The notes beneath the pieces were generated by a model. The model ran no database searches and was not told the origin of the DNA. It saw only the letters and a program-made list of their open reading frames with translations. Below, in pieces: positions 1 to 5,765 of a stretch of DNA of 64,000 bases. The DNA is from Minisyncoccota bacterium (lineage in GTDB: Bacteria > Patescibacteriota > Minisyncoccia > Minisyncoccales > CSSED10-335). The DNA lies in NCBI GenBank assembly GCA_028701035.1, contig JAQVRO010000001.1, forward strand, positions 5,497 through 69,496, in the 5' to 3' direction. Made by a program: the position numbers and the translations under genes. Numbering within the stretch: position 1 is the stretch's first letter; each line of letters starts with the position of its first letter.

Positions 1-2162
1 TGCTCTTTGCTTAATGGCTCAAAAAGAACAACTGAACTAAAACGATTGATAAATTCGGGCTTAAATATTGATTCTTTAAAGAAATAATTTAAAAGCTCTA
101 ACTTTAAAGACTCGGAACTAACATTATCTTTCGCGCGCTCTAGTATTAAATTACTTCCAGCATTACTGGTTGCAATGATAATGCAATTTTTAAAATCAAC
201 TCTTTGCCCCATACCATCAGTAATACTACCCTCGTCTAATACCTGCAAAAACAAATTTAAAATATCCTTGTGTGCTTTTTCTAATTCGTCTAATAATATT
301 AAAGAAAATGGCTTTTGCTTAACTTGGCTAGTAAGCAACCCCTCACTTTTAGTAGATCCTATCAACCTCTCAATATCATTAAGTGTTTGAAATTCAGACA
401 TATCAATACGAATCATATTTCTCACATCTTTAAAGTAAACCTCGGCTAAAGCTTTGGCGGTTTGAGTTTTACCAACTCCGGTGGGGCCAATAAAAAGAAA
501 TGATCCGATTGGTTTGTCGTGTGAAGAAATATCAGAACGAGACCTTCTAAGAGCTGAAGATATTTCTTTAACAGCACTGTCTTGATTGATGAGCCTTTGA
601 TGAATCAACGATTCGAGATTAACTAAAATATCCTTTTCTTGAGTATCCATCGCCCCAACTGGAATATTCATTTTACGAGAAACTATTTTCCGAATATGCT
701 CAGGCAAAAGAGTCTTTTCATTAATTTGACTAATATACATCATCGCCTCGTCAAGTAAATCTAGGGCTTTTTTAGGAAATGGCTCTTCGGGAATATATCT
801 ATCTGAACAAATAACAATCTCTTTAATGGCTTGATAAGATATAATCTTTTTATACTTAAACTCCATATTAATAGATTGTCTTTGTAAAAACATTATTGTA
901 TCTTTTTGAGATAACTCGGGCACATCTACTTTTTCAAAATACGATCCAACCGAAGAATTATTACTAATAGTTCGATACCCCTTGTAGTCAGTAATACCAA
1001 CAATAGGAAAACTATCAAAGGGAAGATAACTTGCTAATACACCAGAGACATCAACCTTACCCGGCTTTGATTCTCCAGATAAAAAATTATGAATATCGTT
1101 GATAAACAATATTGTGTTATTAGAATTAACGACTTCTTGGAATATATGATCTAGGACATTTTCTAATTCTTCACCATTTTCTACTTTAGCTATTAAAAAT
1201 GGTAAATCTAGCTCAACCACTCTTTTATGATTAAGGCCAACTAAGCTCTCAGCATAAAAACTCTTTTTTGCTAGTGCACGCATTATACAAATCCTCCCCA
1301 CTCCGGCGTCCCCAACTAATAAAACATTATTAATCCCTCCTTTGGCTAAAATTCTCTCAGTTTCTTCTATTTGTTTTGCGTGACCAATAATATCAGGAAA
1401 GTCATTTCTTTTAAAATAATCGGTCCAATTGATAGAAAACTTATCAAGCATTATCGTATAACCTGATGCCCAATCCTTAGCTAAAGATCCTTTTTTGACT
1501 AAGTTTTCCCATTTCCAAAACTTGCTTTGATTCTCAGCCCTCTTACGCATCCTATATATCCAATTGAAAACATTGCGCACATCTTCGGAATCAATATCAT
1601 AATTCTTAAAAACTTCTTTAAGTATAAAATGATTTTCTGAGGCAAAAACCAAAACATCATTTTTTTTAATTTTCACTCCCCCTCTATTCTTAGATTCGTT
1701 TAGAGAACCCTCTAGTAGTTTCCAGATATCGTCGTTATCTTTGGTTGTCTTTAATAATGCTCGCACCTCTCTAATATCAATACCTAATCTTGAAAAGACA
1801 AAAACAAAATCACTGTCCTCTAGTAAGTTGTAGAGAAACTGGCAGGTATTAGTAGAAAATGATCTAGCAACATCAAAGCTAAATAGCTCGGCAATATTAC
1901 CATTGTCTACTATTTTTGGATATTTTAATTTTACATTAAAAAAATATTCAATTTGGAAAAACAACAAAAACAAAGAGAAAGATAAAAATATTAAAGAAAC
2001 AAAATTATCATCAACAATTAAAAAGTAGAAAAGAAATATCAAGAAAAGAAGTAAAGATATTGTCTTTAATAATCGTGCCTTTCTAAAGACAACAAAGCGA
2101 TTCATTTTTACCGCGCTGTATATCGAAGAATTAACCAAATTAAATTGTTCTTTTATTGCCAT
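1..2162 (-). CDS. Membrane-anchored ClpA/B/C-family AAA+ ATPase (3' end runs off the window; not in the ORF track)
   Basis: Manual translation from ATG at 2162 (MAIKEQFNL...). Hydrophobic N-terminal stretch. NBD1 NNVLLVGDAGVGRI / LFINDIH. NBD2 PIGSFLFIGPTGVGKT and LILLDELEKAH, with both Walker A motifs in the same frame. Confidence 0.9.
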   Translation of the reverse strand, partial: MAIKEQFNLVNSSIYSAVKMNRFVVFRKARLLKTISLLLFLIFLFYFLIVDDNFVSLIFLSFSLFLLFFQIEYFFNVKLKYPKIVDNGNIAELFSFDVARSFSTNTCQFLYNLLEDSDFVFVFSRLGIDIREVRALLKTTKDNDDIWKLLEGSLNESKNRGGVKIKKNDVLVFASENHFILKEVFKNYDIDSEDVRNVFNWIYRMRKRAENQSKFWKWENLVKKGSLAKDWASGYTIMLDKFSINWTDYFKRNDFPDIIGHAKQIEETERILAKGGINNVLLVGDAGVGRICIMRALAKKSFYAESLVGLNHKRVVELDLPFLIAKVENGEELENVLDHIFQEVVNSNNTILFINDIHNFLSGESKPGKVDVSGVLASYLPFDSFPIVGITDYKGYRTISNNSSVGSYFEKVDVPELSQKDTIMFLQRQSINMEFKYKKIISYQAIKEIVICSDRYIPEEPFPKKALDLLDEAMMYISQINEKTLLPEHIRKIVSRKMNIPVGAMDTQEKDILVNLESLIHQRLINQDSAVKEISSALRRSRSDISSHDKPIGSFLFIGPTGVGKTQTAKALAEVYFKDVRNMIRIDMSEFQTLNDIERLIGSTKSEGLLTSQVKQKPFSLILLDELEKAHKDILNLFLQVLDEGSITDGMGQRVDFKNCIIIATSNAGSNLILERAKDNVSSESLKLELLNYFFKESIFKPEFINRFSSVVLFEPLSKE

Positions 2163-2533
2163 ATTCCTAAAATAAAAGATAATATCATAATAAAAGGAAT
2201 TAGAATCCATGCCACGATTACTAAGCCACCCAAGAGAAACAAACTAAAACCAGAAACCACTCCAATAATAATTGTTAAAAACCTGACAAACCCACCCAGA
2301 ACCCGAGAGACAAAATTACCGAATAAAATATTAATATAATTCAATGGACCTGAGCTTCTTTCGTGAAACCAATTATAATTATGCCAATAGCAAAACATTG
2401 TTTTAAAAAGAAATCCAATAGAAAAGAAATTAAAGTTGAAAACAAGAATATCTTTAAAGGTTTTAATTATGAAAAAAGGGGCATCAACTAAATACCATTC
2501 AAACCAATTTATGATTATACTTTTTGATTTCAT
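2153..2533 (-). CDS. Small membrane protein overlapping the start of the Clp ATPase
   Basis: 126-aa ORF with hydrophobic C-terminal helices; overlaps the Clp start by 10 nt. Confidence 0.75.
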   Translation of the reverse strand: MKSKSIIINWFEWYLVDAPFFIIKTFKDILVFNFNFFSIGFLFKTMFCYWHNYNWFHERSSGPLNYINILFGNFVSRVLGGFVRFLTIIIGVVSGFSLFLLGGLVIVAWILIPFIMILSFILGIWQ

Positions 2534-2566
2534 ATACTTAAAATCATTATACTTATTTTAAGGGTA

Positions 2567-2594
2567 TTGACAAGAAAATCATCTTTCTTATAAT
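2567..2594 (+). promoter_or_regulatory. Sigma70-type promoter
   Basis: TTGACA (2567-2572), 16-nt spacer, TATAAT (2589-2594), upstream of the ORF at 2648. Confidence 0.75.
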
Positions 2595-2647
2595 GGCTCT
2601 TGTAAAGATAAAAGGTCGAAAACTACCTTTTTTAAAATAATAAAAAT

Positions 2648-2815
2648 ATGGTTATTGAAAAAACAATTATGCCACTTGTGGCACAAGACGAAGACGAGTT
2701 AGATGAAATAGAAGAAGATTTAGTAGAAGATGACATGGACGATGATTTACTAGATGATGATATTGACGATATAGAAGAGATAGAAGACGACCTCGAAGAC
2801 ATCACTGAAGAATAA
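2648..2815 (+). CDS. 55-aa hyperacidic small protein (not in the ORF track)
   Basis: MVIEKTIMPLVAQDEDELDEIEEDLVEDDMDDDLLDDDIDDIEEIEDDLEDITEE*; 30 of 55 residues are D/E; flanked by a promoter and a terminator. Confidence 0.75.
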   Translation: MVIEKTIMPLVAQDEDELDEIEEDLVEDDMDDDLLDDDIDDIEEIEDDLEDITEE

Positions 2816-2817
2816 TT

Positions 2818-2844
2818 AAAAGACCGCCAAAAGGCGGTCTTTTT
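2818..2844 (+). terminator. Intrinsic terminator (possibly bidirectional)
   Basis: AAAAGACCGCC-AAAA-GGCGGTCTTTTT hairpin with T-tail, between convergent genes. Confidence 0.8.
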
Positions 2845-2967
2845 ATAACCCAGGGAATTGATACAAAAATAACCAGATAACAACAACGGCAACAATAATT
2901 ATAATTATGTAATCACTAATATTCATACTTTAATAATATCAATTGTATTATAAAAAAACAAGAGGGT

Positions 2968-3876
2968 TTAAAAATTACCCTCCTTTATTTTGTATTTATC
3001 TTTTGAAACATAGATCTCAAACTTTGCTCCTTTACCATGCTCGCCTACTTCTCTGATAGAGATCCCTGTTATTGATAGAATCTCCTTGCAGAGGAAAAGG
3101 CCAAGCCCGGTGTTCTTGCCGAAACCTTTATGAAATATCCTTTCTTTATCAATATCAGGAACTCCGCATCCATCATCCAACCAAGTTATGACAAGGCCTT
3201 GATCGGACTCTTTGCATTTAATACAGACCTTAGTAGCAAGGCCATGCCTTCTACTGTTATCCAGTAAGTTATAAAAAACCTTACTAATCATAGGGTCGGC
3301 ATATATTTCTATGTTGCGACAATCATATCGTATATTTCCACGAAGATTTAATATAGTGCTCTCAAGAGAAACCCATGACAGGTCCTTACCTAAGTCGTCA
3401 TAGGCCCGAGTAAATTCAACAATCTCCTGAATTCCAGAGATTGATCTAGAGACTTCTTTAAGATACCTTGAAGAAGTCTCGTCAAGGGTATCTTCTCTTA
3501 TAAAATGAAGATACCCATTGGCTGCCATGATATAATTTAAAATATCATGGCGAGTGATTTGGGATAGAATCTGCAACTTTTCATTAGCAGACCTAAGAAC
3601 CTTTCCAAGCCTCTTCTTCTCTGTCATATCTTTAACAGAGATGATCACCTCCGACTCCGATGGAAAAACTCTTATATCAAAGATTTCTCCATTTAACTCA
3701 TACTCAACAAGTTCTGATTGTTGAGCGCGAACAACTCTTGCAACAACCTCTAAGGCCATCGCGAGATCGCCCTCCGGAATAATATCCGAAAGATGTTTTC
3801 CAACAATCGGTTCATTGGAAACCATTTTTACAATGTTTCCCGCTTCGTCAGTAATAATCACAATGTCCATAAACAT
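2968..3876 (-). CDS. PAS-domain sensor histidine kinase, orphan
   Basis: H-box ITRHDILN, N-box VFYNLLDNSRRHG, G1 DDGCGV, G2 GFGKNTGLGL, N-terminal PAS-like region. Start uncertain (3918, 3876 or 3870); GGGGA precedes 3876. Confidence 0.88.
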   Translation of the reverse strand: MFMDIVIITDEAGNIVKMVSNEPIVGKHLSDIIPEGDLAMALEVVARVVRAQQSELVEYELNGEIFDIRVFPSESEVIISVKDMTEKKRLGKVLRSANEKLQILSQITRHDILNYIMAANGYLHFIREDTLDETSSRYLKEVSRSISGIQEIVEFTRAYDDLGKDLSWVSLESTILNLRGNIRYDCRNIEIYADPMISKVFYNLLDNSRRHGLATKVCIKCKESDQGLVITWLDDGCGVPDIDKERIFHKGFGKNTGLGLFLCKEILSITGISIREVGEHGKGAKFEIYVSKDKYKIKEGNF

Positions 3877-3940
3877 TCCCCGCACCAAATTGTAAAAGTG
3901 CTGGCAATAGAATGCCATATAAGATCGTTTTTGTAAAGGG

Positions 3941-4012
3941 TGAGTCCAGATGGATTTGAACCATCGACCTTTCGGATGTGAACCGAACGCTCTGCCCCTG
4001 AGCTATGGACTC
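3941..4012 (-). tRNA. tRNA-Val(CAC)
   Basis: Cloverleaf GAGTCCA..GCTC/GAGC..TTCGG-TT-CAC-AT-CCGAA..GATGG-TTCAAAT-CCATC-TGGACTC-A; CCA not encoded. Confidence 0.93.
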
Positions 4013-4079
4013 CTCGATATCCTTATATAATAAAAAGAAGGATTGCACAATATTTTAAAAAGTACTATAATACCTCATT

Positions 4080-5765
4080 ATGCAAATATTTGAATTTCAA
4101 TTTAATCCCAAAGTAAAAACCAAGAAGGTTGAGAACCTTTTTCAAGAGTTTGAATCAAGCGAACGCAACCTATATATTATTGGTGATCAAAAAAGAATCA
4201 TTCCCGGAAATGAAAAATTCTTAGCCAATATTATTAGAATGATAAAAGATGAATACGCTCTTAATGAACCAGAGAGTCACGAAAAAGCACTTCAAGAATG
4301 TTTGGTTAAAATAAACGATTACTTTAAAATTGAAATAGCTAGAGACAATATTGGCTGGATGGGTAATTTAAATCTAGTAATAGTTTCTCAATACAAAGAA
4401 GAGATCCATTTAACTAAAATGGGTAAATCAAAAGTTTATCTTTTAAAATATGAGAGTTATTCAGAATTAAATAATAAAAACAAAAAGGACTCTAGCTTTT
4501 TTGGAAGTATAATTTCTGGCAGAATGGTCTATGGCGACAGGTTGTGCGTTATATCAGAAGAATTAAACAAAATAATAGAAAAAAAGAAGGTATTAGAAGA
4601 AATAACTAAACTACCTTTCTTAGATCAAAAAATTGTAGACGAAATAATAGAACCTATTAAGAAAGATTTAGGTAAATCATCCGGCACATTCTTCCTCCTA
4701 GATAGTAAAGATAGCCCTAAGAAAAAAAATACATTAATGGAAGAGATAGAAATAGATTTTTCAATCAAAGAACTATACTATAGCATTAAAAGATTTGTTG
4801 ATAAAAAAACAAAGAAAACTCCAAAAATTGGGATTAACGAAGATCTTAAAAATCTCTTAAAGCCACTAATTGCCCTAGGATTGATACTATTAGTAGGATC
4901 TTTTGTTTTTGATAAAGAAGAAAAAGAAATAGTTAAAGAGCTAACCGTAGAAGAAAAGCTAGCTCAAATTGATATAACCAAAGAAGAATCTCTTCCTCTA
5001 TTAGCTGAATTGTATAATGAAGCGGACGACGAAACTGCCACAGAAATTCAAGAAATAATTGATTCTATGGCTAAGATATATAGAATTAATGATATTAGCA
5101 AATCAAAAGATTTTGAAGAAAATGTATCTAAAATACTTTTAAACAAATACGGCTATGACAACAACTTAGTAATATCTAGTAAAAAATATGAATCTAGTTT
5201 TCCAATAGATTTAGTGTTTGAGTTTCAAAACAGAATTCTTTTATTCTCTAAGCCAAACAAATTATTAGAGCTAAAGGATGATAAAATCACAGAACTAAAA
5301 CAACTTGAAATAGAAGCTCCCAATAACCCAACCCCCTATCTAAATAATATATACTTCACTAACAATAAAGAGATAATAAAATACGATTTAAATAATTATA
5401 CCAATTGGCTAAAATCTCCATTAAAACAATCGACCGACATTATTTCAATGTCAGTCGATGGTCATATTTGGATTTTAGATCAAGAGAATAAAATATCTAA
5501 ATATTATCTTGGCGAACATAGGGCAGATATTAATTTAAACATATTCCCAAGCTCTAAAAACTTTATTCAGATTTTAACTTCTACACAAACCGATTATATT
5601 TTTGCCTTAGATTCACTACATAATAGAATTATTGTAGCAGATAAAGACGGAAAATTAGTTAAACAAATTTGGAGCGAAAAATTTAACAACCTGAAACACA
5701 TCCAAATATCTAACAACAAACTATATATCTTAAACGAAAATACTGTTTACGAAACAACTATTTAA
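4080..5765 (+). CDS. Hypothetical membrane protein (possible PP2C-like N-domain, one TM helix, beta-propeller-like C-domain)
   Basis: 561-aa ORF; [17 protein letters not shown]; C-terminal repeats such as DGHIWILD and [15 protein letters not shown] resemble NHL blades. Confidence 0.65.

Follow-up and report, generated by a model that had tools for sequence, protein, structure and literature searches.

A methanogen-type histidine kinase gene behind tRNA-Val in a Minisyncoccales genome: a probable captured archaeal sensor

The window, i.e., the whole stretch of 64,000 nucleotides which was analysed, belongs to a bacterial genome of about 0.58 Mb (G000, genus g1; 91% complete, contamination 0.08%). 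On its minus strand a tRNA-Val gene is followed by an open reading frame for a soluble histidine kinase, which extends over positions 2968–3918 and comprises 316 amino acids when counted from the first ATG (3918). The real start is likely the ATG at 3876 or 3870, 63–69 nt past the 3' end of the tRNA, because the orthologous proteins begin with MFMD or MD; in the kinase copy of G001, the second species of genus g1, a GGAGG motif is located just ahead of the ATG. A beginning within 70 nt of the tRNA, as had been proposed in a sequence-only reading of this DNA, is thus correct by the likely start. The features of the locus are compiled in Table 1. No terminator was detected by a consensus scan between tRNA and kinase, and read-through from the tRNA promoter is therefore plausible; the two genes may be co-transcribed, which would provide the kinase with a promoter. 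An RNA fold in the spacer conserved between G000 and G001 was not supported. The hairpin at the end of the kinase gene gave a z score of −2.2, with equally stable structures in 6 of 200 shuffled sequences, and was not called by the consensus terminator scan; a similar element was recognized by eye in G001, where the stretch as cut gave a z score of −1.5.

Table 1. Positions of features at the kinase locus, given in coordinates of the window.
Feature	Position	Strand	Remarks
27-aa hydrophobic ORF	2843..2926	(-)	delimits the variable slot on the host side; comparable ORFs recognized by eye in G001 and G005
Terminator-like hairpin with U-tract	2952..2984	(-)	overlaps the kinase stop codon
Histidine kinase gene	2968..3876	(-)	302 aa from the likely start; 65% identity to the G001 ortholog
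HATPase_c catalytic domain	2992..3309	(-)	N box NLLDNSRRH, G1 DDGCG, G2 GFGKNTGLGL (~3097–3126)
DHp (HisKA-like) domain	3382..3594	(-)	weak HisKA/SPOB_a matches
Shortened PAS-like domain	3613..3870	(-)	~residues 3–88; ends at the motif D(M/I)TEKKR
tRNA-kinase spacer	3877..3938	(-)	short; resembles the G001 spacer
tRNA-Val(CAC)	3939..4012	(-)	intact, CCA not encoded; position shared by G001 and G005

The domain order of the protein is PAS–DHp–CA. The HATPase_c domain was recognized by Pfam with 55.7 bits (cut-off 26.4), and the HisKA and PAS matches scored under their cut-offs. The N, G1, F and G2 boxes are intact in the alignment, and the ATP lid is short (16 residues as measured by spacing). 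The putative phospho-acceptor, His110 (codon 3547–3549), is situated within the motif RHDILN; H110, D111 and N114 were invariant in all 40 aligned sequences. With its HATPase_c domain carrying the boxes and its DHp domain carrying an acceptor histidine, the protein is, as judged from the sequence, a class-I sensor histidine kinase of ordinary mechanism, which should be capable of autophosphorylation and phosphotransfer. A curated family model specific to the subfamily expanded in Methanomicrobiales was not among the models matched. A profile of the N-terminal 88 residues, made from five orthologs, detected PAS-like segments in six kinases outside the genus (iE<1e-3; none with shuffled controls), and residues 3–298 aligned in an Atlas model to archaeal kinases with a TM score of 0.85; the tentative assignment of a PAS fold is based on these two results, the Pfam match for PAS being below the cut-off. 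A single-sequence AF2 model showed the PAS-like order of elements, but with a mean pLDDT of 38 it was too poor for a fold search. No transmembrane segment was evident in a 19-residue Kyte-Doolittle scan (highest mean 1.42), and no start resembling a signal peptide was seen by eye. The earlier description of a cytoplasmic kinase without membrane segment is upheld, its PAS domain being probable, and the three motifs which had been quoted for it are present letter for letter in the translation.

Continuity of the assembly across positions 2900-4100, where a mis-assembly had been considered, was borne out. Metagenome contigs bridge the 3' junction (X5, 1800–3114; X10, 2304–3217) as well as the 5' junction with the tRNA (X4, 3490–4105; X5, 3608–4211). 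They originated from three studies, of a landfill, manure and an oil facility; none of those listed covers the full 3.4 kb. In G001 the gene order is identical and the kinase occupies the matching slot. The kinase truly belongs to this genome. Its region has a GC content of about 39%, compared with about 28% on both sides, which could be taken for an assembly chimera or contamination during binning, but the gene order of G001, the junctions bridged in three studies and the genome contamination of 0.08% leave this explanation a practically negligible probability. In run X3 kinase sequence adjoins the same left flank also in a co-occurring, more divergent relative (window 2733-3650), and the locus is thus likely present in further species of the genus. 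No RNA run was among the data sets listed as containing the sequence, which speaks neither for nor against expression. Two neighbours may be mentioned. A protein of 561 amino acids (4080-5765, plus strand) was not matched by Pfam, contains a single hydrophobic stretch in its centre, and is located beside rplL in seven of eight genomes of the family. A very acidic ORF of 55 amino acids (2648-2815, plus strand) follows a perfect promoter, TTGACA-16-TATAAT, at 2567-2594; a similar ORF and leader were seen by eye in G001, G004, G005 and G007.

The slot behind tRNA-Val is variable in the family. It is occupied in G005 by a Ca/Na antiporter following tRNA-Val(CAC); in G003 an antiporter is located ahead of the same upstream gene, without a tRNA call, and G004 and G007 possess other content. 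The flanking genes are host genes common to relatives, and the hydrophobic 27-aa ORF at the edge likely encodes a small membrane protein. The variable content and the odd composition would agree with the notion of a tRNA serving as an integration hotspot, but the traces of an integration event are missing: no direct att repeat of the tRNA 3' end was found within 2500–4200, no 14-mers of the tRNA 3' half occur elsewhere in the genome, and the single Phage_integrase (tyrosine recombinase) match of the genome is not at the site, being located on contig C9. Close relatives of the kinase were found neither in phages or viral contigs nor in plasmids, where the best matches showed 24–29% identity and were mostly haloarchaeal. 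A mobile carrier was rejected on these grounds, and the hotspot idea is supported in part. The genome encodes ComEC and DprA, and the uptake of naked DNA with subsequent recombination would therefore appear to be the likelier route. As a separate observation, the tRNA-Val(CAC) genes of g1 (3939-4012) and G005 (L078:6286-6358) share one locus, but their stems are strongly different and they were not matched to each other by a DNA search; the tRNA gene itself may thus have been replaced.

Comparison of the kinase genes of G000 and G001 yielded a dS of about 1.6 and a dN/dS of 0.146, a value which is spanned by those of nine neighbour genes (0.08–0.21). The GC3 of the kinase gene is 0.36 (genome, 0.267±0.042), and its codon score is the 11th lowest among 462 crude ORFs. 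By these measures it is an old and retained foreign gene, partly adapted and under purifying selection. The transfer predates the split of the two species and consequently need not name the present host.

Among the homologs outside the genus which carry an organism name, 47 of 49 are from Methanomicrobiales, one is from Methanomassiliicoccales and one is labelled Rectinemataceae; about four fifths of the listed homologs carry no such name, so that a wider bacterial range is possible. The first listing (120 matches) contained 13 named Methanomicrobiales, one Rectinemataceae and one Parcubacteria, the second (120 matches) 34 Methanomicrobiales and one Methanomassiliicoccales. The label 'Candidatus Pacearchaeota archaeon' on one ortholog is taken to be a mislabel, since the 50S L10 protein of the same accession series is identical to that of G001. 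The same label is found on further bacterial proteins of the order (P0124, P0270, P0274, P0315) and can mislead searches for transfers. In the kinase core, identity was 52% to Methanocalculus (223 bits), 42% to the best copy of family f68 (183 bits; at most 42–45% for f68) and about 30–32% to native CPR kinases (56 bits, in the ATPase part only); through drift, the DHp region has come to share about 50% identity with any archaeal kinase. Three Methanomicrobiales genomes contained 26, 41 and 76 matches of the type. In a sample of 121 genomes of the archaeal phylum (E≤1e-30), 15 genomes of the class sample had from 3 to at least 24 matches each, three other genomes had one match, and 103 had none. 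The type was detected in two of eight genomes of the CPR family of g1, both of genus g1, and not in the six other genera; in the phylum sample of Patescibacteria it was found in one of 401 genomes, which was G000 itself, and was not detected in the 400 others. These counts support the view that the type is expanded in Methanomicrobiales and foreign to the lineage of its bacterial host genome, as had been suspected. Genus g1 is placed deep inside its family by a tree of ribosomal proteins (1,098 columns), and a gain on the stem of the genus is thus the simplest assumption.

An archaeal ancestry of the kinase is very probable. The motifs YADPM and GFGKNTGLGL are common to the g1 kinase and the Methanomicrobiales-type kinases, and an ATP lid of 16 residues was found in all five g1 rows and in 62 of 67 Methanomicrobiales-type rows (five were not parsed); lids measured 19–20 residues in haloarchaea and 25 in five of nine classic kinases (one had 18, three were not parsed). 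The short lid, which results from a shared deletion, is present in Bathyarchaeia-type rows as well and marks a wider group. In a tree rooted on classic kinases, Bathyarchaeia-type sequences formed one side and Methanomicrobiales, g1 and f68 the other, with SH-aLRT values of 95 and 94; the results obtained with IQ-TREE are from quick trees with SH-aLRT support only. Of the Bathyarchaeia-type rows, P0416 alone carries that name, and P0411 clusters with this row; the rows P0410, P0414, P0415, P0417 and P0418, labelled 'B_', are not Bathyarchaeia-type after all. The backbone of the kinase trees is a polytomy, within which g1 is found in several of them. In the FastTree tree, for which 266 of 342 cores were kept after removal of near-copies, g1 was nested in Methanomicrobiales; in one IQ-TREE tree it was sister to a Methanofollis pair (SH-aLRT 91). 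The donor indicated by BLAST is Methanocalculus, that indicated by the trees is Methanofollis, and hence no donor genus can be named.

For AU tests, 36 or 47 rows were hand-picked from sets of 109 and 62 rows, with most of the long-branched f68 copies omitted. A grouping of g1 with classic bacterial kinases, the native HQLRTPL type included, was rejected (p=0.0024, 47 rows), as was a single clade of all CPR copies (p=0.021, 36 rows). Compatible with the data were monophyly of the archaea with CPR copies outside (p=0.19, 36 rows), g1 outside Bathyarchaeia plus Methanomicrobiales (p=0.29, 47 rows), and g1 with four f68 copies as one clade (p=0.20, 36 rows); placement of g1 beside the outgroup had a likelihood above that of the free tree (p=0.72, 36 rows). 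From the idea of an inter-domain transfer with nesting, the archaeal-type affinity can therefore be retained, and strict nesting in Methanomicrobiales is one of several placements compatible with the trees. The direction of the transfer is suggested by the distribution and the lid signature rather than by resolved nesting.

The same kinase type was found in two further families. A sample of 401 genomes of the order yielded 18 with matches: G000, G001, ten of family f68, four of family f5, and two (G225, G234) which were left out of the count for the type, their matches being ordinary kinases located next to receivers. In a full scan of f68, the type was present in 25 of 52 genomes and seven of nine genera; carriers include G256, G180, G283, G123, G493, G240, G319, G308 and G270 (loci L063, L070–L077, L112–L133). 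The architectures are sensor-less, REC-HK and REC-PAS-HK. The copies are AT-adapted and are located at several loci among host genes (clpB region, hisS, pth–lepB, ileS and others); most are flanked by bacterial genes, although a few may be strays, as the bins which contain them are larger or show more contamination. The sensor-less form adjoins clpB in three genera, and the gene often found beside it resembles that of a Ham1-type NTP pyrophosphatase. One f68 kinase falls in a 90% cluster with a protein named 'Parcubacteria bacterium 32_520', and members of the f68 ClpB cluster are labelled Minisyncoccales. Lineage 32-520/UBA5633 was equated with Minisyncoccaceae, the cells of which attach to Methanospirillum (PMC9763046, PMC10936435, both in part). 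Family f68 is thus, going by cluster labels and these papers, most likely Minisyncoccaceae. Growth of the Minisyncoccus type strain was supported by M. hungatei, but not by any of seven further methanogens, which included Methanoculleus and Methanolinea (PMC12281837, in part). In f5, short sensor-less kinases are encoded at L062:3397-4053 (G132), L067, L064 and L065, and three of the four adjoin a gene for a heavy-metal-type P-ATPase. The copies of G132 and G246 grouped with Bathyarchaeia-type kinases (SH-aLRT 98; long branches, one named row), a possible hint of a Bathyarchaeia partner for f5. Families f1, f5 and f68 do not group together on the ribosomal-protein tree; this and the rejection of a single CPR clade suggest at least two acquisitions, and probably more.

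The kinase had been called an orphan, which is true of its position, as no receiver gene is present on the contig; the search of the genome, however, revealed five stand-alone receiver proteins of 120–181 amino acids on other contigs. Three of the five are far from any kinase, and all the ORFs are too short for the usual DNA-binding output domain. No Response_reg match was obtained on contig C28. The genome has four native kinases of the HQLRTPL class near stand-alone receivers, and these could serve all five. One receiver (L005:1258-1803, G000 contig C17) carries a C-terminal tail of 60 residues with two CxxC pairs; this candidate partner may possess an output function. According to parts of PMC5847659, kinases of this class in archaea signal mostly to stand-alone REC proteins, so that partners of a suitable kind would be available to a captured kinase.

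Taken together, the kinase is probably a captured archaeal-type cytoplasmic sensor, which phosphorylates or dephosphorylates one of the CheY-like receivers of the genome itself. An ancestor of genus g1 would have acquired a gene for a soluble kinase from a methanogen of the Methanomicrobiales type, on or beside which it would have lived; natural transformation is the most likely route. Of the sensor part, a single PAS domain, the last one, would have been retained together with the kinase core, and the gene would have settled in the variable one-gene slot behind tRNA-Val. It has been maintained by purifying selection, and the kinase would work inside the bacterium. The cytoplasmic cue read by the trimmed PAS domain could be a small molecule, a partner protein, or the redox or energy state. 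The dimer would then autophosphorylate at His110, and phosphate would be passed to, or removed from, a stand-alone receiver, the receivers presumably acting by protein contacts and not by DNA binding. A Methanomicrobiales host for genus g1 is a testable prediction, which could turn out either way. The suggestion that the kinase points to the host gains from the richness of f68, likely parasites of Methanospirillum, in this type, but loses from the age of the transfer.

Instead of from a host, the gene may have been obtained from environmental methanogen DNA, and its product would now be one more sensor or phosphatase of the usual kind. This account, differing from the preferred one in the host link only, is quite possible, although we would hold it to be somewhat short of even: an archaeal kinase with dozens of copies per methanogen genome would be the likeliest gene to be picked up, the competence genes ComEC and DprA are present, the transfer is old, and the homolog labelled Rectinemataceae suggests that non-parasites acquire the type as well, but the type was not found in the 400 other sampled Patescibacteria, is confined to g1, f68 and f5 in the order sample of 401 genomes, and is richest in that family which is most likely the one attaching to Methanospirillum (PMC9763046, PMC12281837, in part). 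Also conceivable is a relay, in which a gene of archaeal ancestry reached g1 by way of another Patescibacterium, such as f68 in the same habitat, and would tell nothing directly about the host of g1. The g1 kinase is, however, 52% identical to Methanomicrobiales kinases and 42% identical to the nearest f68 copy, its gene is still rich in GC3 for the genome, and its architecture and locus are unlike those of the f68 copies seen; g1 and f68 were joined in no free tree, even if their clade is compatible (p=0.20). A relay is thus improbable despite the occurrence of the type in 25 of 52 f68 genomes, in AT-adapted copies among host genes.

Interference with the signalling of the host had been considered in the sequence-only reading; the kinase would enter the archaeal host and phosphorylate, or drain, receivers there. 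We have abandoned this as very unlikely. The protein shows neither a transmembrane segment nor, by eye, a signal-peptide-like start, a VirB4-type delivery protein was not matched in the 91%-complete genome, the bacterium has five receivers of its own, and drift of the DHp region (about 50% identity) should erode the specificity for host partners. The catalytic boxes, all retained, the absence of a receiver gene beside the kinase, and the reliance of archaeal signalling largely on stand-alone REC proteins (PMC5847659, in part) would be in its favour. An opposite direction, with a type old in the Patescibacteria order, mostly lost there and given to, or shared early with, archaea, is more improbable still; long-branched CPR copies do fall at the base when distant outgroups are used, and monophyly of the archaeal rows is compatible (p=0.19), but a common clade of the CPR copies is rejected (p=0.021), f1, f5 and f68 are ungrouped on the ribosomal-protein tree, losses would have to be assumed in large number, the loci differ between lineages, and the sister group is Bathyarchaeia-type.

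A wider notion, tentative and rather unlikely as it stands, is that archaeal hosts may have left this kinase type as a repeated trace in Minisyncoccales, in the form of host sensors which were captured, trimmed and wired to the CheY-like receivers of the bacteria. If true, episymbionts could read the cue which the host itself reads, and change accordingly from searching to growth in the attached state and back. Such a rule would reproduce the known association of Minisyncoccaceae with Methanospirillum; for g1 it would predict a Methanomicrobiales host and for part of f5, with less weight, one among the Bathyarchaeia. Hosts of Patescibacteria are known for only a handful. A type abundant in one archaeal class and concentrated in a likely parasite family could perhaps allow host proposals from sequences for uncultured lineages, e.g., those of landfills, digesters and oil fields. 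In a genome of about 0.6 Mb, the retention of a foreign protein for signalling by selection, through the divergence of two species, suggests that sensing is of importance to such cells. Minisyncoccus archaeiphilus is publicly available in co-culture with Methanospirillum hungatei (PMC12281837, PMC13293708, in part), and the idea should therefore be testable now.

Among known systems, the soluble (REC)-(PAS)n-HisKA-HATPase kinases of Methanomicrobia (PMC5847659, in part) resemble the g1 kinase in being cytoplasmic PAS kinases with RHDILN, YADPM, GFGKNTGLGL and a short lid, at 45–55% core identity. The g1 kinase differs by its single copy in a bacterial genome of 0.58 Mb, behind a bacterial tRNA, and by its one shortened PAS domain, without REC, in 302 amino acids; the kinases of Methanomicrobia have mostly 350–1,900. 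A member of the subfamily with tested function was not found in the census literature on Methanomicrobia kinases (PMC5847659, in part). The f68 kinases share with it the subfamily, the lid signature, the bacterial order and the embedding among host genes, but they differ in loci and architectures and reach at most 42–45% identity; no mention of them was found by term in the available parts of the Minisyncoccus papers. The native CPR kinases of the HQLRTPL class are also class-I and encoded in the same genome, but they have a longer lid and about 30% identity in the ATPase part only. Solved PAS/HisKA/HATPase kinases (PDB 3a0r, 2c2a, 4gcz) have the same domain order and are distant class-I proteins; the best profile match was 3a0r (E 2.6e-25, nearly full length), and none of the structures listed is a close relative within the subfamily. 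A methanogen-type kinase in Patescibacteria was not reported in the full-text literature searched, including Minisyncoccus and Nealsonbacteria papers, supplements aside. Archaea-to-CPR transfers in print comprise the cupin-type PGI in Nealsonbacteria (PMC7304191), RuBisCO (PMC6389311) and TyrRS/TrpRS (PMC5370408; all in part), i.e., enzymes of metabolism or translation, whereas the g1 gene encodes a signalling protein; its likely donor order is the one to which the known hosts of a related family belong. The mechanism of the kinase and the presence of archaeal genes in CPR were already known; the new part is the recurring, lineage-restricted capture, which matches a known host order.
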